NCBI GenBank assembly: GCA_023266895.1
Contig: JAHFOI010000001.1
Location: forward strand, 1 to 52,132
Direction: 5' to 3'
From: Candidatus Woesearchaeota archaeon
GTDB taxonomy: Archaea > Nanobdellota > Nanobdellia > Woesearchaeales > ARS49
Length of the DNA stretch: 52,132 nucleotides
Shown here: positions 3-40,064 of the stretch, in pieces
Layout of the letters: each line of letters starts with the position of its first letter
How positions within the stretch are numbered: position 1 is the stretch's first letter
The notes under the pieces: generated by a model
What the model was told of the DNA's origin: nothing
Seen by the model: only the letters and a program-made list of their open reading frames with translations
The model's database searches: none
Translations under genes and position numbers: made by a program

Positions 3-2333
3 ACACTTATTGCAAAAACATTTGCCATAGATGCAGGGCAACTTCTTGCGCGAGCAGGAAGTGGTGGATTTGATGGAGTTAATCAAAATTTTGCACCAAG
101 CGGTGGAGCTGGTGTTATAGAACTTAAGCATGCAGGAATTTCTTGTAGTTCTGAGTGCCTTGATGGAATTATTCCAGACTATCAGCCAAGCATTGTATCC
201 GGTGTTAGTTCAGGATGTTGTGGTGCTCAGCATGAATGCATGAATTTTACAAATGCAACCTTGTGCACCCAGGTTAGTAATACAACTTGGCAATGGCTTA
301 CGTTGGACAAGCAGGGGAAAACATTCACAAGTGTGTGTGGTAGTCCAACAGCAATTTTAGTGAGTGATAGATATTATTCGTGTGGTGCCAATGCGTCAGG
401 CACAACCCTCTTGCGCATTGCAAGTGCATCTCAAAGCAACAAAAGTCATGAGTATGCTTGTCGTGATGTGTCTACATCAGGTTCTGCAAGTACACTGGGT
501 ATTGCAGAATGTAGGGGTAATGCTCCTGCATTTAGTGATTCAGCACGGTTTACTTCTGGTGAGAATATCACGCAAGTTCAGGGGTATCCTTCTCAGTCAT
601 TTTATTGTACTGCTGCGAGTCACTGGACTGCAGATTTGGATAATGCAGATCAAGAAACATGCACTCGTGCAGGGTATGTGTGGACTGGAAGCAAGTGTTG
701 TGCTGAGGAGGTCAATGAAACATACAATGAACCAAATATTTTGCCCACAGGTATTCCAAGCTGGCAAAATCCTGTGCGTTCAACAAGTATTGGAAATACC
801 ACACCAATTACTGGTGCATGTTGGGAGTCACAATATGTTGCACTTGGCCAATACGTGCTACGTAAAAATAACACGCCAACAGCTCAAGCATCTCTTCGTA
901 AGACAATTATTAATTATCAGGGAATGTTTTACAATTGTAATGAAGAAAATCGTAGCCTTCTTGGCACGCGTGACACACATACAGGTCAGGTTGTTGTGCA
1001 GGAATTAGGGCAGGCGTGTGCAGTGCTTGCAAATGCGCGTCCTGGAGCAGAGCAGCCTCATGCATTTTGCACATCTGAAGGGTGGTTGTTTGATAGTGAG
1101 TTGCGAAATTCTCGTACAACAATTGCATGGCAAGTGCCTGAAGTTATTCCTCAAGGATTTAGTGTGGGAGGCTGTTGTGGCGCGACAAGTTGCTGGAATG
1201 GGACAGGTTGTGTTCAAGATCAGGCAGGTCAGTCAAGTACACTGAATACCTATCCTGGTAATAGGCGTTGTATTCATGGTCAGTGGGTTGTGCAGGAACC
1301 AAAAATAAGTTTTAATGGTAATGGTCAAGGTTTTTGTCCAGAACCAACACAGTGTCTTGCAGATCCGTTAGGTAATCCTGCAAAGAATGGTAATGTTCAA
1401 CAGCTTGCAAGCATGCGTAGTCAGGATCGTCCTCAATGTTTGAATGCAAGTCAATACTTTTTGGACAATTTTTGCAAGCAAGGTAATTGGACATCACGCA
1501 CGCGTTTGCTTGCAACACAATTGCTTAGTCATGCATTACAGACAAGTCCTACAAACTATACCTTGTATTGTGACACGCCACAGCGCATAATTCCATGGCT
1601 TGATGATGTGCCTGTTGTGCAGGCATATTTTGCTGTGCCTTGTGCAAATGCTGATTCGTGCTCAAATAATTTGTGTGTGCTTATGACTGCTTCAGGAATT
1701 GGGGTAGGTACAACACTTAATAGTTTAGATCAAGATCCAGGGCTTGCGCTTCAAGGATTTATGAATGCACTTGGCAGTACTGGAGCACAATGCGTGGTTT
1801 CTGAGTTTTCAGGGCAAAATTTTGTGTCATGTGGTGAAGGAATCTGGTACAGTAAGGGTTTGAATGCAGTTGTGTATTTACCTAAAGAAAATTTCAGGCC
1901 TTTTGATGGAAGTGCAGGTGAAGTTCTAACAAATGCATTGCAACCCATTGTGCTAAGTGCGCAAGCGCATACCACAACTCTTCATCCTTTTGATAAACTG
2001 TATGCAACAACTAGGATGATGAATTCCTTGTACATTGCTCAGCATGAGCGTGGATTTTTGTTAAGTTTTGTTGAGCCAATGCAACGCAGGCCTGCAGGTA
2101 CTGGGGTGTTTCAAGACTGGCTTGGGGTGTATGCAAAAGGAATTGCACACTCTGCTTGTGCAGAACAACCTCTGGGCAGCATACGACAATATGATCCTCA
2201 GGCAGTCTGTACATATGATCCTTTGACACAGACAACAATTATTCTCAGAAGTCAGCAAGCGCAACCTCTGGATGCAACACCGAGCCCGCTGATTAAGGAG
2301 TACTCTAACATTGCAGGAAAACTACGCCCATGA
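3..2333 (+). CDS. Cys-rich, N-glycosylation-sequon-rich surface protein, 5'-truncated by window edge
   Basis: The reading frame is open from nt 3 with no stop before the first ATG (240), so the gene begins upstream of the window. Many Cys and N-x-S/T sites, no TM helix. The stop overlaps the next start as ATGA (2330-2333). Confidence 0.6.
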   Translation, partial: TLIAKTFAIDAGQLLARAGSGGFDGVNQNFAPSGGAGVIELKHAGISCSSECLDGIIPDYQPSIVSGVSSGCCGAQHECMNFTNATLCTQVSNTTWQWLTLDKQGKTFTSVCGSPTAILVSDRYYSCGANASGTTLLRIASASQSNKSHEYACRDVSTSGSASTLGIAECRGNAPAFSDSARFTSGENITQVQGYPSQSFYCTAASHWTADLDNADQETCTRAGYVWTGSKCCAEEVNETYNEPNILPTGIPSWQNPVRSTSIGNTTPITGACWESQYVALGQYVLRKNNTPTAQASLRKTIINYQGMFYNCNEENRSLLGTRDTHTGQVVVQELGQACAVLANARPGAEQPHAFCTSEGWLFDSELRNSRTTIAWQVPEVIPQGFSVGGCCGATSCWNGTGCVQDQAGQSSTLNTYPGNRRCIHGQWVVQEPKISFNGNGQGFCPEPTQCLADPLGNPAKNGNVQQLASMRSQDRPQCLNASQYFLDNFCKQGNWTSRTRLLATQLLSHALQTSPTNYTLYCDTPQRIIPWLDDVPVVQAYFAVPCANADSCSNNLCVLMTASGIGVGTTLNSLDQDPGLALQGFMNALGSTGAQCVVSEFSGQNFVSCGEGIWYSKGLNAVVYLPKENFRPFDGSAGEVLTNALQPIVLSAQAHTTTLHPFDKLYATTRMMNSLYIAQHERGFLLSFVEPMQRRPAGTGVFQDWLGVYAKGIAHSACAEQPLGSIRQYDPQAVCTYDPLTQTTIILRSQQAQPLDATPSPLIKEYSNIAGKLRP

Positions 2334-3583
2334 AAAATCTGAACAATCGCGCCCAACTCACAGTTTTTATCATTCTTGCTATGCTGATTTTGATTGTTGT
2401 TGGAACCCTTGTGTGGGCTGGAGTTCGCGTGAGTAACACAAATCAATTTGCGCAGCAAGACAATCGTGCAAGAACAAGTGCAGTGCATGCGTATCTTGAA
2501 TCATGTCTTGAGCGTGTTGCTCTTGACACAATTGCGCTTTGGGCAGGTCAGGGAGGAAGGTTGTATGTTGATCAGGGAGGTCAGGATCCACTGCCCGACC
2601 AATTTATCAGGTTTGAGGGAAAAACAATTCCATACCTTATCTTGCCTCCAGAAGGTGCTGTGGGGAGTGTGTATTCTGCAGCACCTCCAGAGTATCCGTG
2701 GAGAGGTTTTCCATTTTTAACAACTGGTCAGCCATGGTTGTATGGGTATTATGGAAGAAGCATGCTGTTGCCCTTGTATGATAATTTTTCATTTTCTGCA
2801 CAGCACAACTTTGAGCAGGCAATAGAATTTGGCATGCGTGCGCAATGCAAAAATCTTGCAGCAATAACAAGAATGCCAACACTTCTGGATTCAGTTCGTG
2901 TTTTTGTGACTCTTGCGCAGGATCCGTTGTTTGTGCTTGATACGTTGAGTTTAGCTCAAGAGCATAGCATAATTAGCGCAAGTGTTCATGTGAAAAGTGC
3001 TGATGAACAGAATACGGTTGTTGACTGGCAGGATACCATAAGTTTCGCACAATCTGTGCGCATTGTCAAACTGTATCATGTTATAAAAAATCTGATTGAA
3101 CAGGACACAACACGCATTGACTTTAATATTCAGGGAATACAGTCCGGAGGTTATGTTGTGACAGTATTGCCTCAGGGGGCTGATGACTTGATTATGGTGC
3201 GGGATGAGCGTACACGTATTAACGGGCGTGCCTTGGAATTTTTGTTTGGACGAAAAAATAGGCTGCCAGCATTGTATGAATTGCCAAAGACTTTATCAGT
3301 GGGCTGCATAGGAACAAGTATTACGTATGATGCAACGACTGCAACACTTTGGATTGCACCCCCTGTGCAACAAACAGGTTGTGGACAAAACACGAGCCTA
3401 TCTCTCAAAGCACTTGATCCTGATGAGGAAAAAGTTACGTATGCATTTGTTCCGTTGCTTCCTCATATAATAACTTCTGATGAAGTGAGTGCGAATAAAG
3501 ATTTGCCTCTTACAGTGTTCGTAAAAGATAGTGCAAACATGACTGATTGGCAATCAATTCAAATTCCTTTGAGGCGCACATGA
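2330..3583 (+). CDS. Type IV pilin-like protein (class III signal peptide) with large globular domain
   Basis: N-terminus MKNLNNRAQ/LTVFIILAMLILIVVGTLVW: a short basic leader, [GAS]-Q, then about 20 hydrophobic residues. ATGA overlaps at both gene ends. Confidence 0.5.
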   Translation: MKNLNNRAQLTVFIILAMLILIVVGTLVWAGVRVSNTNQFAQQDNRARTSAVHAYLESCLERVALDTIALWAGQGGRLYVDQGGQDPLPDQFIRFEGKTIPYLILPPEGAVGSVYSAAPPEYPWRGFPFLTTGQPWLYGYYGRSMLLPLYDNFSFSAQHNFEQAIEFGMRAQCKNLAAITRMPTLLDSVRVFVTLAQDPLFVLDTLSLAQEHSIISASVHVKSADEQNTVVDWQDTISFAQSVRIVKLYHVIKNLIEQDTTRIDFNIQGIQSGGYVVTVLPQGADDLIMVRDERTRINGRALEFLFGRKNRLPALYELPKTLSVGCIGTSITYDATTATLWIAPPVQQTGCGQNTSLSLKALDPDEEKVTYAFVPLLPHIITSDEVSANKDLPLTVFVKDSANMTDWQSIQIPLRRT

Positions 3584-6500
3584 TTAAAACTAAAAAAACT
3601 TTTTTCCTTCGCTGGTGTACTGGCTATGATGCCTGTTCAGTAAAATACAATCTTTTTTTCCTGCTGGTAGGAATCATATTTTTTGTTGTTCTTTTAAGTA
3701 GTATTCTTCCGCAGGTTAGTGCAGCTATCACTGGCTGTTGTTGTGATCCAATAACGCGTACTGGAGGATTTCAGCCTCAGCCTGAGTGTGCTGCTGAATA
3801 TCTTTTTTTCCCAAATATCAGTGTTGGTCAAACCTGTGGTGTAGTGTGTGATGCGCGTCTTCCGCCTGCGTTGCCCCAGAATTGTACAACTCAAGAGCCA
3901 CAAAACGTGGTTGCTCGGCCACTTGCAGGACAGCCTGTTGTGCTGATTTCATGGCAGTCAGGGTGTGGTGCGGATAGTGCAGATGTTGAGCGATGCCTGG
4001 GATCTTCATGCACTGCATTCACTTCACTGGTGAAAACCCAAAGTACAAGTTATTTGGATCAGGATACTGATCTGGTTGTGGGACAAGACATCAAGTATAG
4101 GGTCAGGTTTCATTATGATTCACTGAATATGACAACGCAGTATGTTGTGGCAACAACAAATCTTGGAGATATTGAATGTCAAGGTCAGGCACAGGATGTG
4201 AGTTTTTGTATAAGTCCTTTTTTCTACATTGCGTACAAAAAATACTTTGTGCAAAAAGGGTATCAAAGTCCTATTGCAAGTATTCCTGCAGTGTCTCGTG
4301 AACAATTTATTCAGTCATTTGATGCAACAATTAATACAACATTTTTCAGTAGGTTCAATACTGCATTCATGTGTGGTCAGGACAATAAATTGCATCAGCA
4401 ATGGGGTTGTACTGTAGGTAGTGCGTGTGTGAATAATCCAGAAACTCAGTGTGCACAACTCAAGGTGTGCCGTCAGCAAACAACTCTTTTTGGTATTTAC
4501 ACCACCACAGACTTGTGTGAGAAGGATCAGAACGCAACTTCGTACTGCTTTTTTGATCGTTCTTCGTCTATCACTAATCAGTGTTATGCCTGTAATCCAC
4601 GTATGAATTGTTATGATTATCGCACAAAAGAGTCATGTCAGCGTGATAATTGTGGTGTTGGCGCAAGTACTGTAAGAGTTACAGCAAATAATGCTGCTGC
4701 AAATACTGAAGGTCAGAGTGGAGGTTGTGAGTGGCGAGAGACCATACCTCAGCTTGGCATAGGAGTGTGTGTTGATGCTCAAAAAAATAATTGTATTGCG
4801 TGTGATCAAACAGAAAATGTTGGGGGGATATTTGGTCTTGATAATCATGACGCGTACAATCCTGTGTTTGATGCGTGCACTCCAGAAAAAGCTCAAGCGC
4901 TTGGCAGGCCAGATGATGCATTTCAGTGTTTTTACACTGCTGATGAGAATACTGCAATAGGTTGTGATACTGCAAGTTGTGTGTCATTTAAAAATCAACA
5001 ACAATGTGCTACACCAAGTGCGGGCATACAGCTTGATGCAACAAATGCACTACGTCAATCATCAGCAGATCCTTGTAGCATACGTGTTTGTCAGTGGTAT
5101 GCAAGTGCAACAGGAGGTAGGTGTGCCAAAAACGCTGATGGCAGGTCTGACATTATTGATTGTGTAAATGCAACATGTGAGCAAGACTACTTTCCGCCGA
5201 TCACCACGCTTGTTGCCCAGAAAAGTAATGGAACTCTAAGTGGGTTGAGTATTCGTGTATTGGATAAGACAACAAAACAGGAATTGCCAACTCTGCATCA
5301 AGGGTACACAACCTTTTTGTGCGTCAAAACACCCACGCAGTCGTGCGCAAATGCACAGCAATTTTCTATTAACACAACTAGTCAGTCACTTTCTCTTCAG
5401 GATCTCACCCTTCTTGATGGTCAAATGCCTGTGGCGCATCTGCTTGATGGAGTTAACACTCTTTTTTATTATTCTATTGATTCTGCACGTAATCTGGAAA
5501 TTGTGAAAAACACCACTTTTTTTGCGTGCACGAACTGTCAAGGACCGCAGCTCATAAAAATAAGTATTCTGCCAAGTAGGGCAGTCAATCAAACAGTTTA
5601 TACAAATCAGAATCTGCCTCGTATTGAGCTGAGTTTTAATGTTCCTGCAGAGCTCATACCTGGCACAGGGCTTACGCAAGCCAACCAAACTATTGCAGTG
5701 CAGGGCATCACTCCAGGCTATCATCTTAATTATACGCTTACACCAACACGTGTGCTTCAAGACGGGTCATACGTACTTGTTATTCAAGCTCGTGCACAAA
5801 ATGGTGTGATTATGAGTCAGGCGCGCGTGCTCACATTGGTTATTGATACACAACCTCCGCGTATTCAGTTTGGAATAGCAGGAGAAACTAAACTTAACAC
5901 AACCCAAACAGTCATACCCTTCACGAGTACAGAGCCTATGGATCTTCCTACTGTTTCATACACTGAGGAAACATACTTGAATGGGTTTGCAAAAAAAATC
6001 AGTACAATTCAGGTTTCTGAGCAGGATGTAATATCGCAGAATAATCAGTACCAGTTTGTGCTTCGTGCCACAACACAAGGGGTGAAAAAAGTTCAAGTGC
6101 TTGCAAAAGATTTTGCAGGAAATACTGCAATAGCTACAGTTACGTATTATGTTTTGAATCAAGCTCCGGAAATTCGTATGGTCAGTCCTTCTTTTGGTGT
6201 TACGACAACACAAACCTTTGATGTGGGTATTGAGACAAGTATTCCTGCTACGTGCAAGCTTTGGTTTAATGCACCGCCGTTGCCTGTCACGCAATTTGAT
6301 CAGCTTTCATCTCTTGCAACAAACAACAGCTTGATGCATACCCAGCAAGCGCTTTCTCTCACTCAACCAACTGGTTTGCTGACTGTGTATTGTAAAAATG
6401 CACAAGGCATACGCACTCGAACGTATACTATTGTGCTTGATCCGAATCCTCCGCAGGTTGCGGAATTCCATGCATTTCCAAATCCAGTATTTGAAGGTCC

Positions 6501-8613
6501 TCCTTTTGTCACACAACTGAGCATTAACTTGAATAAGCCAGGTTTTTGCAAGTATAGCACGACAACAACGAATTATGCGTTGATGGAAAACACCTTTCCC
6601 GAATTTCAAGAGGAGCCGCGCACAACCCACACAGATGCATTTAGCACTAATGGAACAATAACAGTGAATGCAGCCTGTGAATCGCCTGCAGGAAGAGTGA
6701 GTCAGACAAAAACAATTCTTGTGCAAACAAATGCAACAGCAAAATTAAGCGCAATAAGCACAACACCTGTCACAACAAACTCAACAAACATCACTCTTGG
6801 TGTGCAAACAAACAAAAAAGCAGTGTGTTATGTGGGGTATGCGCCAGACAATCTTGTTCAGTGCATGAGTAATTGTACGTTTGAGTATGCGCATGTGACA
6901 ACCCTAGAAGGAATTTCAGGCAATAACACGTACTATGCAAGTTGTACCACGCCAAATTCACAGGAAACAACAACTCCATTCAGTATTAGTGTGCTTGCAG
7001 ACATAACTGCTCCGCTCATGCAGTTTGTTAATGATACTGCGTATTATGAAACAAATGGTGCACATGAGCTTCTTGTGCCAGGATTTCCTGATGTGAGTTT
7101 TTTCACAGACAGAATTATGGTGGGAATGTTTGCTTCAGACAATGAAACCCGTGTCATGAAATATGTGTACAGTGTAGAAACAGTGTTTGGCAATGCGGTT
7201 GTGATTCCTGACACAGAATTTAATGTGCTGAATGGTTCAAGTACGTGGGTTTTGCTGGGCAATACCAGTCTTGCTGATCAGACCGAGTACAGATTTAGTG
7301 TGCGTGCAGTTAATGCAGTGGGGCGCGTGAGTGAAGCTATGAAAAGCGATGGTGTGCTTATTGATGCGAGCAAGAAGCCCGGTTTGTGTGCCAACAAACA
7401 AAAAGACGAAAATGAGACTGATCTGGATTGTGGAAAAAGCTGTGGTCCTACATGTCAGGAAAACAAGTCTTGCATAACGCATAATGATTGTGTAAGTCTT
7501 TATTGTAGTCAATCAACTCATACGTGTGCGCAACCATCCTGTACTGATAACATAAAGAATGGTAAGGAATCAGACATAGATTGCGGCGGTGCCTGCGCGC
7601 CGTGTAGCATAGGAAAAGTCTGTACTCAACACACAGATTGTAACACTCAGTATTGTGCGCAACAGAATGCTACGTGTGGTACTGCTCCCTTGTGCAGTGA
7701 TAATGTGCTTTCATCAGGAGAGTCAGATATAGATTGCGGAGGTAGTTGTACAGCTAAATGCAGTCAGGGACAAACCTGTGTTGCACAAACAGATTGTGCT
7801 CAAGCACTCCTGTGCGCCAACAGCAGATGTCAAACCTGCAATGGTAATGACTGCGGTCCGTATTCTTGTGGAGACAATATTCCAGATGCGTGGCGTCAGA
7901 AGTATTTCAACACTCTTTCCTGCACTGGGCAAGGCGCACAAGATGCAGATCCTGATCATGATGGACTTCGCAATGGTGATGAGCATCTTCAGCATACAGA
8001 TCCAACTCGTGCAGATACAGATGGTGATGGCTGGAATGATATGGCTGAGCTTGCAAAAGGAACAAATCCTGTGGATGCAAGTGATCATCCTTCTCGAAGA
8101 GTGATTTTCTGGATTATCGGAGGGCTAAGTATGGTCTTGCTTTGTCTTGCAGGATATTACAGAAACAAGTGGCTTCCATATCTTGGCAGGAAAAGTTTGC
8201 GAACAGTTCAGCATCCTTTTGTGAGGCAAGTGCCTCAATACTTTTTCCGTAAATCAAAAGAGTTGTCAGCACGCAAAAAAATACATGAATCTTCTCAGCA
8301 GGATCAGGAGGTAAATCAGCATGTTTTTGAGAAAGATTTTTCTCAAGAAACAGTAAGTTCTGAGCGACAAGGTGTAGCAGAAAAATCAAAACTCACTATT
8401 TTTGATCGGCTCAAGCTTATTGCACTTCAAAAACTTCCTCAAGCAGAACAGCAGCGTTTGCTCAAAGAGTTTGAAGCACTAAAGCAAGGAACGCTTGCAG
8501 AGCAAGAACGCAATCAATTGTTTGCAAAACTAAAAATAACAAGTACGTGGTATGAGCTTCATAAAGAGACACTGCATAAAGAACTCAGTACGTGGCTTGG
8601 TAGGAAAAAATGA
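3580..8613 (+). CDS. Giant (1677 aa) type-I membrane surface protein with FN3-like, Cys-rich, Ig-like, 8-Cys repeat and TSP3-like Ca-binding modules, a TM helix and a cytoplasmic coiled-coil tail
   Basis: ATG 3580 forms ATGA with the upstream stop (the track start 3547 is TTG). Sec-type signal ...LPQVSA/AITG. FN3-like segment at 3898-4116. Three 51-aa 8-Cys repeats at 7387-7839. DxDxDG repeats at 7942-8049. TM helix VIFWIIGGLSMVLLCLAGYY at 8101-8160, followed by a roughly 150-aa charged tail. Confidence 0.75.
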   Translation: MIKTKKTFFLRWCTGYDACSVKYNLFFLLVGIIFFVVLLSSILPQVSAAITGCCCDPITRTGGFQPQPECAAEYLFFPNISVGQTCGVVCDARLPPALPQNCTTQEPQNVVARPLAGQPVVLISWQSGCGADSADVERCLGSSCTAFTSLVKTQSTSYLDQDTDLVVGQDIKYRVRFHYDSLNMTTQYVVATTNLGDIECQGQAQDVSFCISPFFYIAYKKYFVQKGYQSPIASIPAVSREQFIQSFDATINTTFFSRFNTAFMCGQDNKLHQQWGCTVGSACVNNPETQCAQLKVCRQQTTLFGIYTTTDLCEKDQNATSYCFFDRSSSITNQCYACNPRMNCYDYRTKESCQRDNCGVGASTVRVTANNAAANTEGQSGGCEWRETIPQLGIGVCVDAQKNNCIACDQTENVGGIFGLDNHDAYNPVFDACTPEKAQALGRPDDAFQCFYTADENTAIGCDTASCVSFKNQQQCATPSAGIQLDATNALRQSSADPCSIRVCQWYASATGGRCAKNADGRSDIIDCVNATCEQDYFPPITTLVAQKSNGTLSGLSIRVLDKTTKQELPTLHQGYTTFLCVKTPTQSCANAQQFSINTTSQSLSLQDLTLLDGQMPVAHLLDGVNTLFYYSIDSARNLEIVKNTTFFACTNCQGPQLIKISILPSRAVNQTVYTNQNLPRIELSFNVPAELIPGTGLTQANQTIAVQGITPGYHLNYTLTPTRVLQDGSYVLVIQARAQNGVIMSQARVLTLVIDTQPPRIQFGIAGETKLNTTQTVIPFTSTEPMDLPTVSYTEETYLNGFAKKISTIQVSEQDVISQNNQYQFVLRATTQGVKKVQVLAKDFAGNTAIATVTYYVLNQAPEIRMVSPSFGVTTTQTFDVGIETSIPATCKLWFNAPPLPVTQFDQLSSLATNNSLMHTQQALSLTQPTGLLTVYCKNAQGIRTRTYTIVLDPNPPQVAEFHAFPNPVFEGPPFVTQLSINLNKPGFCKYSTTTTNYALMENTFPEFQEEPRTTHTDAFSTNGTITVNAACESPAGRVSQTKTILVQTNATAKLSAISTTPVTTNSTNITLGVQTNKKAVCYVGYAPDNLVQCMSNCTFEYAHVTTLEGISGNNTYYASCTTPNSQETTTPFSISVLADITAPLMQFVNDTAYYETNGAHELLVPGFPDVSFFTDRIMVGMFASDNETRVMKYVYSVETVFGNAVVIPDTEFNVLNGSSTWVLLGNTSLADQTEYRFSVRAVNAVGRVSEAMKSDGVLIDASKKPGLCANKQKDENETDLDCGKSCGPTCQENKSCITHNDCVSLYCSQSTHTCAQPSCTDNIKNGKESDIDCGGACAPCSIGKVCTQHTDCNTQYCAQQNATCGTAPLCSDNVLSSGESDIDCGGSCTAKCSQGQTCVAQTDCAQALLCANSRCQTCNGNDCGPYSCGDNIPDAWRQKYFNTLSCTGQGAQDADPDHDGLRNGDEHLQHTDPTRADTDGDGWNDMAELAKGTNPVDASDHPSRRVIFWIIGGLSMVLLCLAGYYRNKWLPYLGRKSLRTVQHPFVRQVPQYFFRKSKELSARKKIHESSQQDQEVNQHVFEKDFSQETVSSERQGVAEKSKLTIFDRLKLIALQKLPQAEQQRLLKEFEALKQGTLAEQERNQLFAKLKITSTWYELHKETLHKELSTWLGRKK
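7387..7839 (+). repeat. Three tandem 153-nt (51-aa) 8-cysteine repeats inside the giant gene
   Basis: Units start at 7387, 7540 and 7693. Shared pattern: C-x-D/N-x5-7-E-[ST]-D-[IL]-D-C-G-[GK]-x-C-x2-C-x5-C-x5-D-C-x4-C-x6-C. Confidence 0.8.
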
Positions 8614-9221
8614 GCAAGAAGATGAAGCATGGTACGGCACTGCACAAGAAAGTGTTACAAGCTACCGAAAGTTCTCGTACGTGTGTTCTTGCCCAAAAGT
8701 ATGTCATGCCTGCAAAGGTGCATGCACAAATTATAGGTCAGGTATTTGTATTTATTATTGCAGGACTCGTGTTTGTACTCATACTTACGTATGGCTATAC
8801 TGCAATCACGAAGTTATTAGAAACAAAAAAAAGTGTTGATGTTATAGAGTTTAAAACTAGTCTTGAGCAAAACATTGCTGCAATACGCACGAGCACAGGA
8901 AGCGTGCGTAAAGTGGTTTTGTCTGTTCCTTCAGAGTATATTGAATTTTGTGCAGTAGATCCTCTAATGACGCAGGCGCATAGTAAAGAGTTTAAAAAAA
9001 ACCACCCGCTTTTTTTTAATGCATGGCGGTCAGATCCTACACTCACAGTGTTCCTTCAACCATTGCTTGAAACACCGATTAAACTGCCAGACATTGCAGT
9101 CAACGGGCCATTATTTGACGAGCCGGGTTTTTTTTGCATTCCAGTCAGTAATGGAAGACTTGTGCTTAGCATGCAGGGCACGGGCACGCATGCGCAACTT
9201 CTTCCGTGGGTGGAGTCATGA
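8610..9221 (+). CDS. Pilin-like membrane-anchored protein
   Basis: Contains ...VHAQ/IIGQVFVFIIAGLVFVLILTYG. ATGA overlap with the giant gene. An internal ATG at 8706 would give a short MPAKVHAQ leader instead. Confidence 0.45.
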   Translation: MSKKMKHGTALHKKVLQATESSRTCVLAQKYVMPAKVHAQIIGQVFVFIIAGLVFVLILTYGYTAITKLLETKKSVDVIEFKTSLEQNIAAIRTSTGSVRKVVLSVPSEYIEFCAVDPLMTQAHSKEFKKNHPLFFNAWRSDPTLTVFLQPLLETPIKLPDIAVNGPLFDEPGFFCIPVSNGRLVLSMQGTGTHAQLLPWVES

Positions 9222-10297
9222 AAAAACTTCCTTCCAAAACCGTGCGTGGGTTCTGGTCAAGAAAGGCATTTGAAGTGCAGTTTCACTGGATTTTTATCAT
9301 GATTGCAGGAGCAATTATTCTTACGTTTTTCATTACTGTTGTCACAAAGTATCAGTCGGTTAGTGAAGAACGTTTTTCTCTTGTGTTGAGTAAGCAATTG
9401 GAAACAATTCTTTCTGGTGCGAGTATTGCAAAGCAAACCACACAGCACATACAGCTTCCACTTCCTCTGAAAACCTCTTGTACAGAAACGTGTGCGTGCA
9501 GTTTTAGTACAGGAACAAAAGTAACTCAGCTTAAAGGAACATCTCTTTTTAGTCCGTCAGTTCTTGCTGGAAAAGAGCTCATATACACAACCCATGATTG
9601 GAATATTCCTTTTCGTGCAGGAGTGTTTGTGTATCTTACTGATGACCAACAGCAATATGCACTCGTGTATGATCCTGGTGACAGCGCAAGCACTGCGTTA
9701 CTCACAAAAATAACACAGCAATTGCCGCAGGAATTGAGCGTAAAAAACATAAGCATAACTCTGCTGTCATCAATTGTGCTGCAGCAAGAAAACAAAAAAA
9801 TTCATTTGATTTTCCTTAACACACTGCCAGATGCATTCGCATTGCGTAACGCGCAGGAAAATTCTGGCGTAATTATAACAGTGATCACTGCAGCTGGAGG
9901 TGTGCAGTTTTATGCACGAAATACAGTGCAAGAATCAAACAATGTTCAGATAGCGCAGGTTCCTATTGCAAGTACCTGGACTAGTGATGCTGAATTGGTT
10001 GGTGCAATTTTTAGTGACACGCAGCGTAGTTATGCCTGCAATTTGAGGCAAGCATATGCTCGTGCACAATGGATTGTGCAAGTTCAGAATAAACGTCTTG
10101 ATGCATTGCAGTCACGTTGTTCAACTACCAAAATTAAAGAAACACTTGCTGAATTTGAGAAAACAATGAAAGTCCTCTCGCAGGAAATAGGAACTCAAGG
10201 TGAAGCGCCAGCAGTACTTACATTGCGAGCACTCCAGCATGATCTTGCGCAGGAAAATCAGCAGCTTGCCAAAGCAAACTGTCCAACAATATACTAA
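9218..10297 (+). CDS. Pilin-like membrane-anchored protein
   Basis: ATG 9218 forms ATGA with the upstream stop (track start 9206 is GTG). N-terminus MKKLPSKTVRGFWSRKAFEVQ/FHWIFIMIAGAIILTFFITVV. Confidence 0.45.
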   Translation: MKKLPSKTVRGFWSRKAFEVQFHWIFIMIAGAIILTFFITVVTKYQSVSEERFSLVLSKQLETILSGASIAKQTTQHIQLPLPLKTSCTETCACSFSTGTKVTQLKGTSLFSPSVLAGKELIYTTHDWNIPFRAGVFVYLTDDQQQYALVYDPGDSASTALLTKITQQLPQELSVKNISITLLSSIVLQQENKKIHLIFLNTLPDAFALRNAQENSGVIITVITAAGGVQFYARNTVQESNNVQIAQVPIASTWTSDAELVGAIFSDTQRSYACNLRQAYARAQWIVQVQNKRLDALQSRCSTTKIKETLAEFEKTMKVLSQEIGTQGEAPAVLTLRALQHDLAQENQQLAKANCPTIY

Positions 10298-10345
10298 TCC
10301 AATAATATAATAATACAGTTAATACATAATCTGGTTCAGGAAAAA

Positions 10346-10939
10346 ATGATGTGTACTAAAAAAAGTAAAATAACTGGTATAGAAAAACCAAGAGGCATTG
10401 TTCAGAAAGCGGGTACAAAGAATGTTGTACTGGTTGGCAGAATGTTGTGTTTTGGGAGTAAAAAATCGCAGATACAAATGTTTGAAAGTGTCGCAATTCT
10501 TGTTGTTTTTTTCTTTTTTATTGCGTTTGGAACAACTATTTGGTATGGCGCGCAAAAGGCCAGTTTTGCGCAGGATCTTGAAAGAACTCTTGAGTCTAAT
10601 GCGCTTGCAATTGCGTTGCGTGCAAGTCATGCACCAGAACTTGACTGTAGTTTATTGGGTGTGCAGCGTCAGGAGTGTATTGATATCACGAAAGCAGCGC
10701 AGTTTGCGAATATAACATTGCAAGAACAAGCGCGTTTGAGCTATTTTGAACTCTTTGGTTTTTCCACAATTGTTCTTCATCAGCTGTATCCAGAAAATCT
10801 TTCAGTATTGCTGTACAATAATCAGCTTTCTAATGCTACAGATATTCATGCAACCTTCCTTCCGATATTGGTTGAGGACCCCAACAAAAATACCTTCTCT
10901 TTTGGTATGCTTGAGGTGCACACGTATGCAATGCCGTAA
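10346..10939 (+). CDS. Pilin-like membrane-anchored protein
   Basis: Contains ...GSKKSQ/IQMFESVAILVVFFFFIAFG. A TATA-like ttaataca lies 20-27 nt upstream of ATG 10346. Alternative ATG at 10442 (MLCFGSKKSQ...). Confidence 0.45.
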   Translation: MMCTKKSKITGIEKPRGIVQKAGTKNVVLVGRMLCFGSKKSQIQMFESVAILVVFFFFIAFGTTIWYGAQKASFAQDLERTLESNALAIALRASHAPELDCSLLGVQRQECIDITKAAQFANITLQEQARLSYFELFGFSTIVLHQLYPENLSVLLYNNQLSNATDIHATFLPILVEDPNKNTFSFGMLEVHTYAMP

Positions 10940-11426
10940 CAAACACTCAAAAACTCAGGGCAAGGGTCAAATGGAAATTATGGGTCTTGCAATTATTATC
11001 ATTCTTGTTGTTCTTGCGCTTCTTTTTACGCTTCACTTTGTCAGGCAGGAATCACAAGAACGTTCAATTCCTGATAGTCTCATGGCAAACATGTTTGTGA
11101 GCACGTATCTTGATACAACTGTACCAGACTGTAGTAATGTAAGAATAAAAGATTTGTTGAAGGATTGTGGTCAAAGCAATAGTATGGTGTGTCCTAGTGG
11201 AAAAACAGCGTGTCAGCAGGCAGAAGGGGTAACTAAAAGAATTACCTCTTCATATGAGAAAATTCTTCATCGGCACTTTAATCTTATTATTCAAGGTCCA
11301 CAAAATCTTCAGGCAATGAGTATTCGCGTGGCGTGTTCTGGAGAACGTGAAAGCTCAAAACCGTTTATTGTACCTACCATTGGAGGAACTGGTATAACAG
11401 TGCGATTTGAGATTTGTGAAAAATAA
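10926..11426 (+). CDS. Pilin-like small protein
   Basis: ATG 10926 overlaps the previous gene by 14 nt and gives MQCRNKHSKTQGKGQ/MEIMGLAIIIILVVLALLF. The track start 10746 is TTG and lies inside the upstream gene. Confidence 0.5.
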   Translation: MQCRNKHSKTQGKGQMEIMGLAIIIILVVLALLFTLHFVRQESQERSIPDSLMANMFVSTYLDTTVPDCSNVRIKDLLKDCGQSNSMVCPSGKTACQQAEGVTKRITSSYEKILHRHFNLIIQGPQNLQAMSIRVACSGERESSKPFIVPTIGGTGITVRFEICEK

Positions 11427-11433
11427 CTGCACG

Positions 11434-11441
11434 TTTTTTTT
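11434..11441 (+). terminator. Oligo-T tract at the end of the surface-protein operon
   Basis: A T8 run lies 8 nt after the stop at 11426, in a 28-nt convergent gap. Oligo-T is the usual archaeal termination signal. Confidence 0.3.
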
Positions 11442-11454
11442 CTCTTTTCTTCTT

Positions 11455-14936: not shown

Positions 14937-16388
14937 TTACTGATATGCATTATTCCTAAAAATAAGATGCCAGCACCTTCTTCGTGAAGCATTTAGCACA
15001 GGAACAAAATGTTCTGATAAAAACGCGCGTGTATCATTTAATTCTTGAGCGCAATGCATATCTGCATCTGCGCAAATAATGCCTCCACCACAATTGTCTA
15101 AAGCAACATATTCAATATTATTCGTGTGTTGAACAAGATATTCATGAAAACTCTTGGCAATCGTGCCATCATAGACTGGATAGTACACTTTGTGAAGCAA
15201 TAGGTCACTATACACTGCCATCACAGGATTCGCAATCCACACCTCGCCAGAAGCATCCACATTCGCAAAAAACTGTAAATATGCTTCTGAAATATCATCC
15301 TTAGCTACATATTCGCCTTGATAAAATGTTATTGCATGAAACACCGCAACACCAAGAAGTACAAAACACACAACATGCCACAGCCATGCTTTCTTGCAGC
15401 ACCAGGACTTATTGAAGAACCACTGCACTCCTTCACACGCAAGTAATGTTACAAAAGGAAGAAAACTGAGTAAATAGCGATAATCCCTGCAAGGCAGCAA
15501 AGAGTAATACGCTAACGGAAATAATGTGCACAGCACAACAACCATGCGTGTGCGTGAAGGTTTTACCAAAAATAAGGTGAATCCAATAACTGCAAATGCA
15601 TACACCCAGTGTTCAAACCACAATAATTGAAAGTAGGCATACCATGGGCGTGCGTGAAGTACTGTGCATCCTAATACTTTGCCAATCACTCGTTGTCCTT
15701 CTATAAAGGAGTGTAGTGGGTTGCTATACATCCACGTGCTCCAGACCAGAAATGGTGCGACCACAACACCAAAACCAGCACCTAACTTGCAGCATTGTTG
15801 CCAGATGTGTTTCCAGGAGTTCTGCCAGCACAACATGCAGAGTAATGCAATGCCAAATATTCCGCTTGGAAATCGTGTTAGGGTAGCAAGACCAAGGCTA
15901 AGACCTGCCCAGAAGAGTGATTCATTCAAAAAAAGCAACACGCTTAGTAGTACGAAAAATAATGAAGGTATTTCAGTGTACTCATGAAATCCTAAAAAGA
16001 AAAAGATTTGTGAAAAACCAAATAAACCAGTAGCGAGCAATGCAGTTCGTTCATCACTCATTTTTTTACATATCTTAAATACCAGCCACATGCATCCTAT
16101 TGAAAGAACCAACATGATCGCTCGTGCAGCAAGCACAGGTGATATGCTGAGTTTCCAAAAAAAGCCAAGCACTACAGGCCACAGCACAGGACGAATGTCT
16201 TCCCATAATCCTGCACTGCCTAATGACCAGAGCCATTTGCCCATGCCCAGGTACACTCCAGAATCCCACCATATTTCATGCCAGCGAAATGCAAATAATA
16301 ATCGTACCAGCAAGCTAATTCCCAGCAACCACCAAATTCCTTGTTTCATAAAATATTTGTCAATCAATTCTTGACAGTTTTTTTTCAT
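14937..16388 (-). CDS. GT-C fold glycosyltransferase (ArnT/PMT_2, family 39-like)
   Basis: About 12 TM helices, Trp-rich N-terminal loop, soluble C-terminal domain. The start overlaps the upstream stop (TAATG at 16386-16390). Confidence 0.6.
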   Translation of the reverse strand: MKKNCQELIDKYFMKQGIWWLLGISLLVRLLFAFRWHEIWWDSGVYLGMGKWLWSLGSAGLWEDIRPVLWPVVLGFFWKLSISPVLAARAIMLVLSIGCMWLVFKICKKMSDERTALLATGLFGFSQIFFFLGFHEYTEIPSLFFVLLSVLLFLNESLFWAGLSLGLATLTRFPSGIFGIALLCMLCWQNSWKHIWQQCCKLGAGFGVVVAPFLVWSTWMYSNPLHSFIEGQRVIGKVLGCTVLHARPWYAYFQLLWFEHWVYAFAVIGFTLFLVKPSRTRMVVVLCTLFPLAYYSLLPCRDYRYLLSFLPFVTLLACEGVQWFFNKSWCCKKAWLWHVVCFVLLGVAVFHAITFYQGEYVAKDDISEAYLQFFANVDASGEVWIANPVMAVYSDLLLHKVYYPVYDGTIAKSFHEYLVQHTNNIEYVALDNCGGGIICADADMHCAQELNDTRAFLSEHFVPVLNASRRRCWHLIFRNNAYQ

Positions 16389-18514
16389 TACTCAAACCTC
16401 GGATTCACATCGCCGAAACAAGTTTGGTTTGCAAATTCTTGAAACAATAAATAACCATAGGGGTATGGTGCTGAATGAAATAAGACTGCGTGTCGTGATG
16501 AATTTTTGGCAAGCCAGTCGCGTACGTGTACATAATCATCCTGAGAATAAACGCGTACTGCAATGGTGTTGGCGCCAATAGACTCTGCCGTGCTTGTTAT
16601 GGTACTGGTTTGATTAAAGTCAGTGATTTGTACTGAGACAATATCAAGAGGAAATGTAGTGCGTAATTCTTCAAAATAATTTGTAGGCGTTTGGTAATAC
16701 CACAATGCGTATGGTAGAGGGGTGGCGTTTTCAACAACCACAACTTGGTTGCGTTGAAGCACACATTCCTGGCCTCCAATAATTGTTGTGTTATTTACGA
16801 AATGAAGTGGTGGGCTTGGTAGTAATTTCAGGTCATGTCCGAGACCAAGAAATGCATACTTGTCAGGAAAGCATACGACCGTAATGTCATGTTCAGAAAG
16901 ATATTGTGCTGCTGCAACTTTGCCTGGGTGATCACAGTCGCTCCAGACAACAGAAGCATTCAAACGAATTGCTTGTTCAACTAGCATGTTCACGCCATGC
17001 GTATCTATTAGTAAGCCAATATTCTTGTGCAAAAATCTTGCAGTAGGATATGAAACTTTATCTAAAGGAACTTCAAATCTGAACACTCCTTTTTCATCAG
17101 GAGCATACCACTTGCCTGAGGAGTATGCTACCATGGTTCCTGTGGCAGTCAATGGAATGATACGTGTTTTGTTGAGCACATTTAGCAAACGACCTCCTTC
17201 GTGCCATCCAATATCTGCACGTAGTTCCTCTTCAGAAAGTGTATGTTCTTCAGAAAAAACATGTAGCACTTTATTACCCCAAGGGCTTTGATTTAAGTGT
17301 CCTCCGAGCCAGTCTCGTTTCACTCTGTCAGTTTGAGGCAGGACGCGCGCACCGTCAAGCAGTGTAAGACGTGAACTGCCAAGCACAACACGTGATGCAT
17401 TATGCGCACCTGTTGAGCTGGTAGGAGCAATAGAAAGTGGTGCGAAATGTATGGTTGGTTCTTGATTATTTGCAAGTGCATGAAGAATATCTGCGCGCCA
17501 TTGCACTCCTAATTTACGCCATGCTGATTCTGCTTGTGTAAGCGCAATTGCGTTATTGCGACCGCATCTCACGCTGGCAATTGTTTCTAATAATAATGCG
17601 CGTTCTTCAAGAACAATTGCACTTTCAGGCATGTTTGTGAGCGCATCAAGGGCAGCATCATAATCGGCTAATGAATTGCAAATCAATGTTCTGTTCGCAA
17701 ATACTCTTCCTGCAAGTAATTTCAGATCACCTTTTGCAAAAGAATCATTAACGTGAATCAATAGTTTTTCAGTTTGATTTTTAAACCAGGTCATGTTGGT
17801 TCCAGCACTTCGCAGTACATATCCAAAATCAATAGGTGCATAGGGGTCTGGCGTTCGTAAAATGCTCAAAATTGTTGCATTAAGTACTCCTTGATATGCA
17901 AAACCTTCGTGTTTTACGTTGCCTATAATGATGGTGGGTGCGCGAGAAACATTATTCGCTTTGGCAAATAGTCCGACAAGTGGTTCGTCAATGTAGTCTT
18001 TGTCAATGGATAGCACAATTACTTTATCTTCATATGCTTTGCTTAAGTCTTCAAGCACAAAACCTTCACGTACGCTTAATTCATTATCAACGCTGTAAAA
18101 AAACACAATTGGAATGTAAGGATTGCCGCATTCAGTGTTCACGCCTTGTACCAAAGAAAAAAACCTGAGCTGCAAGAGAATATATTTACGTTTCAAATAA
18201 TCAAAGTCTTTTTTGTTCAGCCAGCTTGCAGAAGAGTATCCGCTTAAGTCAGCGCCTACTTGGCGCATTTGCTTTTTTAGTTCAACAACTCGCTCACGAA
18301 GTAAATTGCATGGCGCAGCACTCACTGTTTGAGTGAATTCTTGTTCTACAACAAAACTCAACCTGCCAATTTCGTGTGAAACCATTTGGTTAAGAATAGT
18401 ATCAACACGCACAAAATCAAGTCCGTAATTGAGCAGAATGCCTACCATAAAAATACTAAGAGTTATGAAAAATGAAAGCATGATTAGTTCAGCAAAAGAA
18501 TGGTCAAGTGGCAT
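16388..18514 (-). CDS. Membrane-anchored 708-aa extracytoplasmic protein, N-terminal module paralogous to 20482-21177
   Basis: N-terminal TM helix (FAELIMLSFFITLSIFMVGILL). Shares the module C-x-L-x-R-x-R-V-x-E-L ... LKRxYxLLQxR ... N-[VI]-SRAP with the 231-aa protein. Confidence 0.6.
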   Translation of the reverse strand: MPLDHSFAELIMLSFFITLSIFMVGILLNYGLDFVRVDTILNQMVSHEIGRLSFVVEQEFTQTVSAAPCNLLRERVVELKKQMRQVGADLSGYSSASWLNKKDFDYLKRKYILLQLRFFSLVQGVNTECGNPYIPIVFFYSVDNELSVREGFVLEDLSKAYEDKVIVLSIDKDYIDEPLVGLFAKANNVSRAPTIIIGNVKHEGFAYQGVLNATILSILRTPDPYAPIDFGYVLRSAGTNMTWFKNQTEKLLIHVNDSFAKGDLKLLAGRVFANRTLICNSLADYDAALDALTNMPESAIVLEERALLLETIASVRCGRNNAIALTQAESAWRKLGVQWRADILHALANNQEPTIHFAPLSIAPTSSTGAHNASRVVLGSSRLTLLDGARVLPQTDRVKRDWLGGHLNQSPWGNKVLHVFSEEHTLSEEELRADIGWHEGGRLLNVLNKTRIIPLTATGTMVAYSSGKWYAPDEKGVFRFEVPLDKVSYPTARFLHKNIGLLIDTHGVNMLVEQAIRLNASVVWSDCDHPGKVAAAQYLSEHDITVVCFPDKYAFLGLGHDLKLLPSPPLHFVNNTTIIGGQECVLQRNQVVVVENATPLPYALWYYQTPTNYFEELRTTFPLDIVSVQITDFNQTSTITSTAESIGANTIAVRVYSQDDYVHVRDWLAKNSSRHAVLFHSAPYPYGYLLFQEFANQTCFGDVNPRFE

Positions 18515-18564
18515 AAGAACTGAGTAAAAAGACCGCTTTAAAGAGTTTTTGCTTTACCTGTGCT

Positions 18565-18579
18565 TTGGTGAAAATCTCG
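18565..18579. repeat. 15-nt direct repeat, left copy (ttggtgaaaatctcg)
   Basis: An exact copy recurs at 20197-20211. The two copies bracket the plus-strand dehydrogenase gene. Confidence 0.8.
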
Positions 18580-18879
18580 CATTGCTCGCCTTGTTGTCAG
18601 TTTACCTTCCGGAATATCGCCCTAAATGGAGGCTAATTCGAACTTTGGTTCTCGAAGCATTGAGCTTGGAAAATCCAAGATTCAATGCAACCCCCTTCTC
18701 AGTACGCAATATGCTGTGGGAGGTTCTCAATAACTATGGTTCTTGGATCCTTCAAGTGTAAAACACATTGGAGGCTTCACGGAAAGGAAGCAAGGGACTT
18801 TTTCACCAGAGCTGCAAATTTTTCATATAATTCTAAAAAAAGCCTTCGCAAGATTTTTAAGCGGCAGAGTGTGAAGAAA

Positions 18880-20190
18880 ATGAATATGAGTTGGGATAAT
18901 GTAGTTGTTGGGGTTGTAGGACTTGGATATGTTGGACTGCCACTTGCCGTTAGAATGAGCAAATTCTTTAAAACTATAGGCGCTGATGTAAATCAGCAAA
19001 AAATAAATTCGTTAGTTCACGGCATTGACTACACTGGTGATGTTGGTGATGCAATTTTACACGACGCCATTGAATCTGGAAATATTCAATTTACTAACCG
19101 TGCAGAATTGCTTAAAGGTGCAAATTTCATCATTGCAGCAGTGCCGACACCAGTAAGTAAGGCAAAAGTGCCTGACTTGTCCCCAATTCTCTCAGCTGCA
19201 AAAACAATTGGAGAAAACCTTCAGAAAGGCACAACTGTCGTGCTAGAAAGCACAGTTTTCCCTGGTGTTACACAAGAAATTTTTGGTCCGGCAATATCAA
19301 AGTATTCAAGTCTGCAAATGGGAGTAGACTTCTTTTTAGGATATTCGCCTGAACGAGTAAACCCAGGAGACAAAGAACACACCATCGACAAAATTGTCAA
19401 AGTAGTCTCAGGCCAGGATGAGAAAACTCTTAGTCTTGTGGCAGAAGTTTACTCAAAAATAATTTCGGCAGGAATTCATAGGGCATCATGCATTAAAGTG
19501 GCAGAAGCTGCAAAAGTAATTGAGAACACTCAGCGCGATTTAAATATTGCATTAGTGAATGAGTTTGCAAGAATTTTCAGACTGGAAGGCATTGACGTCG
19601 CAGATGTTTTAGCAGCAGCGGCAACAAAGTGGAATTTTCTAAATTTTACGCCCGGTCTTGTCGGAGGACATTGCCTACCAGAAGATCCATACTATTTGAC
19701 GCATCGTGCACGAGAAAAGGGCTACAACCCGTCAATCATACTTGCAGGCAGATATGTGAATGATACTATTGCAGAGGACATTGAGAAAATAATATTGCAA
19801 GGATTAAACACTAGAGGAAAAGCAGCAAGTGCAAGTAAATTATTAATCATGGGCCTAACTTTTAAGGAGAATGTAAATGACTGTCGACACTCAGGCGCAA
19901 AAGATGTTATTGATCGCTTAAGAGAGTGGAACGTAATATTAGATGGGTATGACCCTCAATTGACAGAAGAAACAATTTTGAAGGAATTTCGAGTGCAACC
20001 GCTTGATTTAAACAAACCCTGCCATAAGTATGATGGAATAGTATTAATTTCACCCCACAAAGAAATACTGAAATTCAACCTAAAGACATTAGCTTCTCAG
20101 TGTGCTGATAAACCAGTGTTATTCGACCTCAAACGCTCGTACAGTGCAATAGACGCTCAAAATGCAGGTTTTTTATACCTGCATTTGTAA
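18880..20190 (+). CDS. Nucleotide-sugar 6-dehydrogenase (UDP-glucose/GDP-mannose dehydrogenase family, TviB/WbpO-like)
   Basis: Rossmann motif VGLGYVGLPLA follows directly after ATG 18880. Catalytic GGHCLPEDPYYL is present. The 65-aa extension implied by the track start (18685) has no family counterpart. Confidence 0.85.
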   Translation: MNMSWDNVVVGVVGLGYVGLPLAVRMSKFFKTIGADVNQQKINSLVHGIDYTGDVGDAILHDAIESGNIQFTNRAELLKGANFIIAAVPTPVSKAKVPDLSPILSAAKTIGENLQKGTTVVLESTVFPGVTQEIFGPAISKYSSLQMGVDFFLGYSPERVNPGDKEHTIDKIVKVVSGQDEKTLSLVAEVYSKIISAGIHRASCIKVAEAAKVIENTQRDLNIALVNEFARIFRLEGIDVADVLAAAATKWNFLNFTPGLVGGHCLPEDPYYLTHRAREKGYNPSIILAGRYVNDTIAEDIEKIILQGLNTRGKAASASKLLIMGLTFKENVNDCRHSGAKDVIDRLREWNVILDGYDPQLTEETILKEFRVQPLDLNKPCHKYDGIVLISPHKEILKFNLKTLASQCADKPVLFDLKRSYSAIDAQNAGFLYLHL

Positions 20191-20196
20191 TTGGCG

Positions 20197-20211
20197 TTGG
20201 TGAAAATCTCG
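20197..20211. repeat. 15-nt direct repeat, right copy
   Basis: Identical to 18565-18579 and begins 6 nt after the dehydrogenase stop. Confidence 0.8.
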
Positions 20212-40063: not shown

Positions 40064-40064
40064 G

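Follow-up and report, generated by a model that had tools for sequence, protein, structure and literature searches.

A conserved Woesearchaeales gene cluster that may encode the minor-pilin and adhesin-like module of a type IV filament

What does an archaeal operon build when it couples giant, cysteine-rich surface proteins to five proteins with pilin-like N-termini? The question is raised by positions 3-11426 of a 52,132-nucleotide stretch of DNA from a Candidatus Woesearchaeota archaeon (assembly GCA_023266895.1, contig JAHFOI010000001.1, positions 1 to 52,132; hereafter the window), which carry seven genes, g1 to g7. The favoured answer, to which a probability of roughly 0.6 is assigned as a whole, is that the operon encodes the minor-pilin and adhesin-like accessory module of an Epd-like (clade 1) type IV filament, with the motor encoded elsewhere; the pilin-like proteins would be cleaved and assembled, and the filament would serve adhesion. 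The claim is that g2 and g4-g7 may work like pilins, not that they belong to a known pilin family. A literature search found no earlier description of this cluster.

The seven genes are consecutive and co-oriented on the plus strand, and the list of open reading frames (ORFs) agrees with independent gene calls on identical public contigs. They are arranged as follows.

3-2333, plus strand: g1, frame open at the window edge
2330-3583, plus strand: g2, 417 residues, pilin-like, with a large head
3580-8613, plus strand: g3, 1677 residues, predicted type I membrane glycoprotein
8610-9221, plus strand: g4, small pilin-like protein
9218-10297, plus strand: g5, 359 residues, pilin-like, with a large head
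10346-10939, plus strand: g6, small pilin-like protein
10926-11426, plus strand: g7, 166 residues, pilin-like
11427-11454, plus strand: oligo-T tract CTGCACGTTTTTTTTCTCTTTTCTTCTT, bounded by the stop codons of g7 and of a convergent ABC-transporter gene

ATGA start/stop overlaps lie at 2330, 3580, 8610 and 9218, and g6 and g7 overlap by 14 nt (10926-10939). The genes are co-transcribable as one operon. Oligo-T tracts serve as archaeal terminators and, on that ground, the tract after g7 is probably the end of the transcription unit; a scan for bacterial-type promoters and terminators was uninformative, the organism being an archaeon. An earlier note on this DNA had described a seven-gene plus-strand operon joined by ATGA or 14-nt overlaps, and the ORFs and the gene calls on identical contigs match that description. 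All five overlaps exist, but the one at 8610 may not be in use. Because the leaders of orthologues are only 3-8 residues long, internal starts are preferred for two genes: g4 probably begins at ATG 8706 (MPAKVHAQ), giving 171 residues, and g6 probably at ATG 10442 (MLCFGSKKSQ), giving 165 residues. With g4 likely starting at 8706, the ATGA overlap at 8610 may therefore not supply its start.

The evidence for pilin-like function lies at the N-termini. Each of g2 and g4-g7 contains exactly one strongly hydrophobic segment, which is N-terminal and follows [KR][GAS]-Q/F (HA-Q in g4). The sites in the window, with a slash at the predicted cut, are RA/QL (g2), HA/QI (g4), KA/FE (g5), KS/QI (g6) and KG/QM (g7), and all five N-termini quoted in the earlier note are correct. 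The archaeal class III signal consists of a short charged leader and a cleavage site ahead of a hydrophobic domain of about 20 residues; all prepilin peptidases need G, A or S at -1, and the archaeal ones also a charged residue at -2 (PMC4371748). All five window proteins display these elements (leader, -1, -2 and hydrophobic stretch). The peptidase EppA additionally requires Gln at +1, as in its Epd substrates (EpdA RAQI, EpdB/C KGQV, EpdD KGQL, EpdE KGQI; PMC4371748). This Gln is found in window g2, g4, g6 and g7, while g5 has Phe. When all six frames of the 52 kb were scanned loosely for [KRH][GAS]x ahead of an uncharged hydrophobic stretch, seven matches came up, five of which are these consecutive genes; within the window, N-termini of this kind thus cluster in the operon.

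The same signature is retained among the orthologues. Position -1 is G, A or S in 212/212 orthologues of the five families, and K or R occupies -2 in 197 of them (93%) and -3 in the others. At +1, Gln is present in about 90% of g2, g6 and g7 orthologues; g4 has Gln or Met, and g5 has Phe, Ile, Leu or Gln. The median leader, counted from the nearest Met, is 5-7 residues. In loci L007 and L009 the g7 site is encoded in frame upstream of the called ATG, and the true starts there therefore lie further upstream. Profile comparison (hhalign, P 3e-5 to 7e-3) shows the five families to be alike, in register, only over their first 30-35 residues, with unrelated heads. Likeness confined to the N-terminus is the usual pattern among type IV pilins. 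The idea that the five proteins are copies of one gene is ruled out for the heads by the same comparison.

Each family adds conserved features of its own. In g2 the predicted class III site is A8/Q9 and the hydrophobic helix spans residues 10-28; [KR][GAS]Q is kept in 28/30 orthologues, and ALDPDE is conserved in the C-terminal region. The g4 protein has His at -2 and Lys at -4 (KA/Q in most orthologues), followed by an invariant IGQVF helix and a head with two conserved cysteines. The g5 site, A17/F18 (KG/Q in distant orthologues), precedes an invariant F-x-W-I-F helix, and CPxL[YF] is conserved at the C-terminus. The site in g6 is S9/Q10, with an invariant Glu at mature +6 (QIQMFE) and two conserved cysteines; in g7 it is G14/Q15, with the mature start QMEIMGL, an invariant Glu at +3 and six conserved head cysteines. 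Five otherwise unrelated families from about 45 species thus keep a small residue at -1, a basic one at -2 or -3 and, in most cases, Gln at +1, which bears out the class III signal-peptide reading made earlier. The motif is that of the EppA sites known from experiment in the Epd pilins of Methanococcus (PMC4371748). The assignment of g2 and g4-g7 as prepilin-type, that is class III signal proteins, is supported at the level of sequence, and they would be expected to be cleaved at these sites.

Gene order provides further evidence. The g4 alignment, run against 185,579 species-representative genomes, yielded 44 loci, nearly all from records titled Woesearchaeota, Nanoarchaeia or Nanoarchaeota, and profile hidden Markov models of g1-g7 were mapped onto their six-frame ORFs. 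The order g3-g4-g5-g6-g7 is kept in 39/39 loci uncut by contig ends (44 species genomes) at 25-45% identity, and also in four further metagenome loci. Upstream of g3, g2 is found in 32/44 species loci, with a length of 390-855 residues, and g1 is present in about half. Identity to the window genes is 50-70% in L003 and L004 and 26-43% in L007, L008 and L009. Word-indexed searches with g2 and g4 returned just 5-6 proteins each, yet the contigs encoding them carry the same seven-gene order. Whether the genes form a conserved unit had been proposed as a test of the pilus reading, and the unit is present in every uncut locus of the 44 species genomes: the core g3-g7 is conserved in order across Woesearchaeales. 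Many GTDB records titled 'uncultured Methanosarcinales archaeon' also carry the cluster (L012, L015, L023, L025-L027, L029, L030 and others), and these titles are probably mis-assigned.

The two giant proteins, g1 and g3, are Sec-secreted, a signal peptide being present in g3 and in a full-length g1 orthologue. Cysteine makes up 4.5% of g1 and 4.8% of g3 versus 1.47% of the other 28 window proteins, and N-x-S/T sequons number 18 and 16 per 1000 residues versus 7.2, so the original description of two large secreted proteins rich in both holds against the rest of the window. The two are not paralogues, a possibility ruled out by the lack of similarity between them. Searches of all seven proteins against Pfam and NCBIfam gave matches in g3 alone, to TSP3 and weakly to Ig-like domains.

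The window holds the C-terminal 776 residues of g1, out of about 1130. The full-length orthologue at L003 1235-4624 has 1129 residues, is 63% identical and carries an N-terminal signal peptide; about 350 residues of g1 are therefore missing at the window edge. The protein has no membrane anchor, is often split into two genes in relatives, and has no Pfam match in either the window or the full-length L003 version, while the L009 orthologue has a precomputed Laminin_G_3 match. In nearly all species a conserved W-x-x-L-T-x-K-L-R motif closes g1 or its C-terminal half-gene (IAGKLRP in the window, where the g1 C-terminus lies at 2240-2333); it could be a docking signal, a sorting signal or a constraint imposed by the overlap with the g2 start. 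In three independent assemblies that contain the identical g2 (window position 1; L001, L002), the contig ends within g1, at or close to the start of the window, a pattern suggestive of a repeat or a strain-variable sequence towards the N-terminus of g1. In L003, an insertion sequence (rve) transposase lies directly upstream of g1.

The g3 protein is organized, from its N-terminus and on the plus strand, into the following parts.

Residues 1 to about 49: Sec signal peptide, mature start GCCCDP, conserved in its clade
After the signal peptide: Cys-rich region
After the Cys-rich region: Ig-like beta-sandwich region, Pfam Big_13 weak here, CarboxypepD_reg clear in orthologues
About 7387-7842: three Cys repeats of about 45 residues
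About 7942-8079: TSP3 calcium-binding repeats, Pfam TSP3_bac E 3.6e-8
8101-8157: transmembrane helix, residues 1508-1526
8158-8610: basic coiled-coil cytoplasmic tail, 150 residues

All 44 g3 orthologues (44/44) have the C-terminal transmembrane helix and a tail of 110-270 residues, and their cysteine content is 3.6-4.9%, except in L054, a divergent locus with about 6%. In the PDB, neither profile nor sequence searches found a relative of g3. From this layout, g3 is predicted to be a self-anchored type I membrane protein that reaches the cytoplasm. Its adhesin-like features are the Ig-like or CarboxypepD_reg domains and the TSP3 repeats.

Structural models of two pilin-like proteins were generated using AlphaFold2. 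The g5 model, built from 115 sequences, has a predicted local distance difference test (pLDDT) score of 87.2 and a predicted template-modelling (pTM) score of 0.81. It consists of a helix at 15-68 (51 mature residues), an eight-strand beta sheet at 75-151, an alpha/beta part at 156-232 and a three-helix bundle at 257-352. The g4 model, built from five sequences, reached a pLDDT of 73.6 at best and about 50 in the other four; it places a helix at 3-61 ahead of a small beta sheet. In both models the order of helix, then head, with an N-terminal helix of 51-54 mature residues, appears to be that of type IV pilins at the level of secondary structure. The g5 family is large: a word-indexed search gave 269 clusters at 90% identity, and an exhaustive search gave 2023 clusters at 50% identity, 890 of them at E ≤ 1e-30. 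All are unnamed and without a Pfam domain.

A candidate for the bulk subunit of such a filament comes from the relatives. In the deep-branching loci L034, L039, L042, L046, L047, L050 and L052, 10-12 more class-III-type genes, a g2 paralogue among them, follow g7.

L034, 12839-19977: downstream array of class-III-type genes

The first gene of this array encodes a 'KKGQGLSLNVIIVAA' protein of 113-125 residues, which is a good candidate for the major pilin. The window holds no homologues of the array, and the sole gene shared with the downstream region of those relatives is an AbrB/MazE-PhoU gene.

Together, these findings suggest the following model for the favoured pilus-module reading. A PibD/EppA-type prepilin peptidase in the membrane, with its gene located elsewhere, would cut the five proteins between the small residue and Gln or Phe, leaving the mature proteins held in the membrane by their N-terminal helices. 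An ATPase of the FlaI/PilB type and a FlaJ/TadC platform protein, also encoded elsewhere, would then pull them out into a helical bundle. A priming or tip complex would be made up by g4-g7, the invariant block of four genes, and g2 (and g5), with their large heads, would be modular pilins presenting binding surfaces. Secreted g1 may dock on the g4-g7/g2 complex as a PilY1-like adhesin, an analogy taken from PMC4858521, while g3, with its own transmembrane helix and cytoplasmic tail, could be the envelope component on the cell side, surrounding the base of the filament or lying next to it. The bulk of the filament would consist of a small major pilin encoded elsewhere, which in the deep-branching relatives would be the 'KKGQGLSLNVIIVAA' gene right after g7. 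Adhesion, host attachment and the presentation of the giant proteins by the pilins are functions that we infer. The earlier note had proposed that pilin-like subunits present or anchor the giant proteins; presentation may stand on that footing, but since g3 has its own transmembrane anchor, the pilin-like proteins are not needed to anchor it.

Several results weigh against this model. With regard to families and folds, g2 and g4-g7 have no match to pilin, archaellin (Pilin_N, Arch_flagellin) or Class_IIIsignal (DUF361) models in Pfam (E ≤ 1) or NCBIfam. Likewise, 104 orthologues of g4, g6 and g7 and 12 small pilin-like proteins encoded downstream, 116 sequences in all, matched no known pilin family in Pfam at E ≤ 0.1; only sporadic sub-threshold matches to DUF7288 and DUF7289 appeared (2-3 of 116). 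The comparison with known pilins, which covered models from Pfam, NCBIfam and the PDB and not arCOG05053, arCOG05055 or arCOG06584, detected no sequence likeness. Foldseek searches of the PDB with the g4 and g5 models returned nothing significant (best E 0.03-0.07, TM-scores about 0.2), profile and sequence searches of the PDB with g4, g5 and g7 gave no match, and the g4 model is of low confidence. The Glu at +5 typical of EppA substrates is absent; acidic residues occur instead at +3 (g7) and +6 (g6), and g2 and g4 lack the Glu. DUF2341 (LamG-like), the hallmark of the large proteins of clade 1 (arCOG03508), has no Pfam match in window g1 or g3, in full-length L003 g1 or in the two halves of L008 g1.

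The same holds for the machinery. A complete type IV filament (TFF) system comprises an ATPase along with a platform protein, a protein of the filament and a signal peptidase of class III (10.64898/2026.04.22.720090). Pfam searches of 35 of the larger ORFs of the window found no ATPase, platform protein or prepilin peptidase, and a scan for Walker-A and A24 motifs in all six-frame ORFs of at least 50 residues found none, in agreement with the absence reported from the first inspection. The flanks of about 45 loci were searched for Walker-A motifs, A24 motifs and ORFs with multiple transmembrane segments; within 10 kb of the cluster there was no T2SSE-type Walker A ATPase, A24 motif or recurrent polytopic protein. 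Upstream, polytopic proteins occurred only in L033 and L037; they are UbiA and an amino-acid permease. Public contigs that match the far end of the window stop about 450 nt past it.

Published reports on machinery in this lineage disagree. In one study flaI, flaJ and flaK were detected in most Woesearchaeota metagenome-assembled genomes (MAGs; PMC11606122), whereas DPANN genomes have been stated to be without type IV pilus components (10.1101/2020.05.14.094862). Furthermore, FlaK of Methanococcus maripaludis does not cut substrates with Gln at +1 (PMC4371748), and a flaK annotation is therefore no guarantee of processing.

These difficulties leave room for other explanations, the best surviving of which, though unlikely, is a short pseudopilus or bindosome-like scaffold. 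Prepilin-like processing would here produce a membrane-proximal stalk that holds the g2 and g5 heads and the giant glycoproteins for nutrient or ligand capture, comparable to the Sulfolobus bindosome. The class III signature is equally expected under this scheme, large heads sit on two of the five proteins (g2 and g5), and no major pilin was found in the window. DPANN archaea rely on scavenging, which also counts in its favour. Class III signals on substrate-binding proteins are reported from archaea as a widespread feature (10.64898/2026.04.22.720090). However, no family or fold of substrate-binding proteins was matched by the heads, the ABC transporter next to the cluster is convergent, of the ABC-2 type and not a conserved neighbour, and a small candidate major pilin stands directly downstream in the deep-branching relatives.

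A somewhat poorer prospect is that the cluster is an S-layer-like envelope module, with g3 as the main Woesearchaeales envelope glycoprotein, held by its C-terminal transmembrane helix, and the small proteins organizing the envelope or opening it for appendages. Makarova et al. read the large proteins with C-terminal transmembrane segments in archaeal type IV pilus loci as S-layer-like (PMC4858521). In the present cluster g3 is universal and invariably combines a signal peptide with a very large ectodomain that could be glycosylated, a transmembrane helix near the C-terminus and a tail; glycosylation genes lie 3-10 kb away. To our knowledge, a conserved cytoplasmic tail of 110-270 residues is atypical of S-layer proteins, which counts against this proposal. 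It also leaves the conserved peptidase-type sites of the five partners unexplained, and it overlaps with the pilus reading rather than excluding it; taken on its own, we consider it distinctly improbable.

Least probable of all are uncleaved type II signal anchors, with helices that merely tether five unrelated ectodomains in complex with g3 and with no peptidase and no filament: the lack of machinery near the cluster in about 45 loci, the lack of any pilin family or fold match and the statement on DPANN genomes cited above would all suit this idea, but the positive-inside rule covers K/R and neither G/A/S at -1 in 212/212 orthologues nor a near-invariant Gln at +1 in three unrelated families, all leaders are very short, the five N-termini line up with one another in register, and flaK, flaI and flaJ have been found in most MAGs of the study mentioned.

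If the pilus-module reading is taken further, g3-g7 could be a lineage-defining contact organelle of the Woesearchaeales, with g4-g7 as the archaeal counterpart of the bacterial four-minor-pilin priming or tip complex, coupled physically to the membrane-spanning giant glycoprotein g3, the conserved g3 tail linking surface contact to the cell interior, and the whole served in trans by the sole FlaI/FlaJ/FlaK set of these reduced genomes. This extension is speculative and we rate it as quite unlikely, but if it were true, the 'archaellum' genes of Woesearchaeota would in fact build an attachment filament. The cluster bears on how uncultured DPANN archaea, which have even been stated to be without type IV pilus components, make contact with their hosts. 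It supplies concrete candidate genes, order-wide, for a surface appendage and its adhesins, in which all members of the g5 family are 'hypothetical'. It also supplies testable cleavage sites, and a g5 head fold that is confidently predicted and without a PDB match.

The surroundings of the cluster offer several further observations. At 14937-22427, 3-10 kb from the sequon-rich proteins, the window encodes a PMT_2 glycosyltransferase, a UDP-glucose dehydrogenase and a GT2 protein, and a 708-residue membrane protein without a Pfam match adjoins the PMT_2 glycosyltransferase. The archaeal origin of the window shows in its genes for RLI/ABCE1 and a Trm61-type methyltransferase, for OapB/OapC and for an Orc1/Cdc6-like protein, and the nearest homologues carry the names Candidatus Woesearchaeota or Nanoarchaeota, in keeping with a DPANN source. 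The grouping of OapC, OapB, a small GTPase and the Orc1/Cdc6-like AAA+ gene at 39689-43020 is probably a chromosomal replication-origin region. A gene at 37523-38461 on the minus strand has a clear GGDEF diguanylate-cyclase domain (E 3.4e-27), which is unusual in an archaeon.

In 16 relatives, the opposite strand just downstream of the cluster carries the AbrB/MazE-PhoU gene (for instance L007 10275-11192, L008 15447-16322 and L009 14608-15510). In the window it is found 27 kb away, at 38661-39593 on the plus strand, a displacement that points to a rearrangement in this lineage. Directly after g7 in 11 relatives is a gene for a 600-960-residue protein with an N-terminal transmembrane segment and a weak APH (kinase-like) match (L044 13360-15168, L008 12575-15454 and nine other loci), which is absent from the window. 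Finally, a small protein encoded at L008 16911-17357, on a Woesearchaeal contig, contains a segment (PFTLIDLGIVSAVIAICAAIAIPG) that looks like the N-terminus of bacterial type IV pilins.

How does this module compare with known systems? Bacterial minor-pilin complexes include FimU-PilVWX(E) with PilY1 in type IVa pili, GspH-I-J-K in type II secretion, and ComGD-G. Like these tip complexes, the cluster sets four adjoining pilin-like genes, among which g5 (about 360 residues; compare GspK and PilX) is by far the largest, beside a large non-pilin adhesin-like protein, and in both cases the pilin-like proteins share the N-terminal helix alone. The signals here instead follow the archaeal pattern, with a charged -2 and Gln at +1 and with neither Phe at +1 (that of g5 apart) nor Glu at +5. 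The folds modelled for g4 and g5 matched neither GspK nor PilX nor any further pilin in the PDB, and the likeness is drawn as an analogy. Modular type IV pilins such as PilB of Streptococcus sanguinis combine a pilin N-terminus with a large extra head that possibly binds ligands, as g2 and g5 may do (PMC8179133), although PilB belongs to another domain of life and another signal type, and the head folds here are without known relatives.

Closer in composition are the archaeal loci of subclade 4G (Pyrobaculum, Thermoproteus), which encode a large protein with a C-terminal transmembrane segment, a large secreted protein and several small Cys-rich minor pilins, with conserved cysteines in almost all components (PMC4858521). 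These loci include an ATPase, TadC and MinD and belong to Thermoproteota, and the likeness is drawn at the level of description.

The nearest parallel is provided by the clade 1, or System 1, pili, exemplified by the Epd pilus of Methanococcus maripaludis and by loci of Thermococci and Methanobacteria. In the clade 1 model of Makarova et al. (PMC4858521, section 9), a pair of large adhesin-like proteins goes with five or more class III minor pilins, with major pilins that are small and stand alone, and with an EppA of its own. A 2026 census (10.64898/2026.04.22.720090) records that System 1 occurs in DPANN and that several systems include large adhesin-like proteins. The window likewise has five class III proteins and two large adhesin-like secreted proteins in one locus. 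The Epd sites, [KR][GA]-Q-[IVL], resemble RAQL, (K/H)AQI, KSQI and KGQM of the window, and the major pilins of the Epd system are small and encoded away from the locus, as is proposed here. In contrast, the Epd locus includes an ATPase, two TadC genes, MinD and EppA, none of which is found within 10 kb here or in about 45 related loci, and Epd substrates carry a Glu at +5 that the window proteins are without. The architecture closely parallels the clade 1 model, with four differences: detachment from the ATPase, TadC and peptidase genes in every locus examined, no detected DUF2341, no +5 Glu, and families that are all unannotated. If the favoured reading is correct, the Epd-type (clade 1) architecture would extend to the Woesearchaeales in a form detached from its motor.

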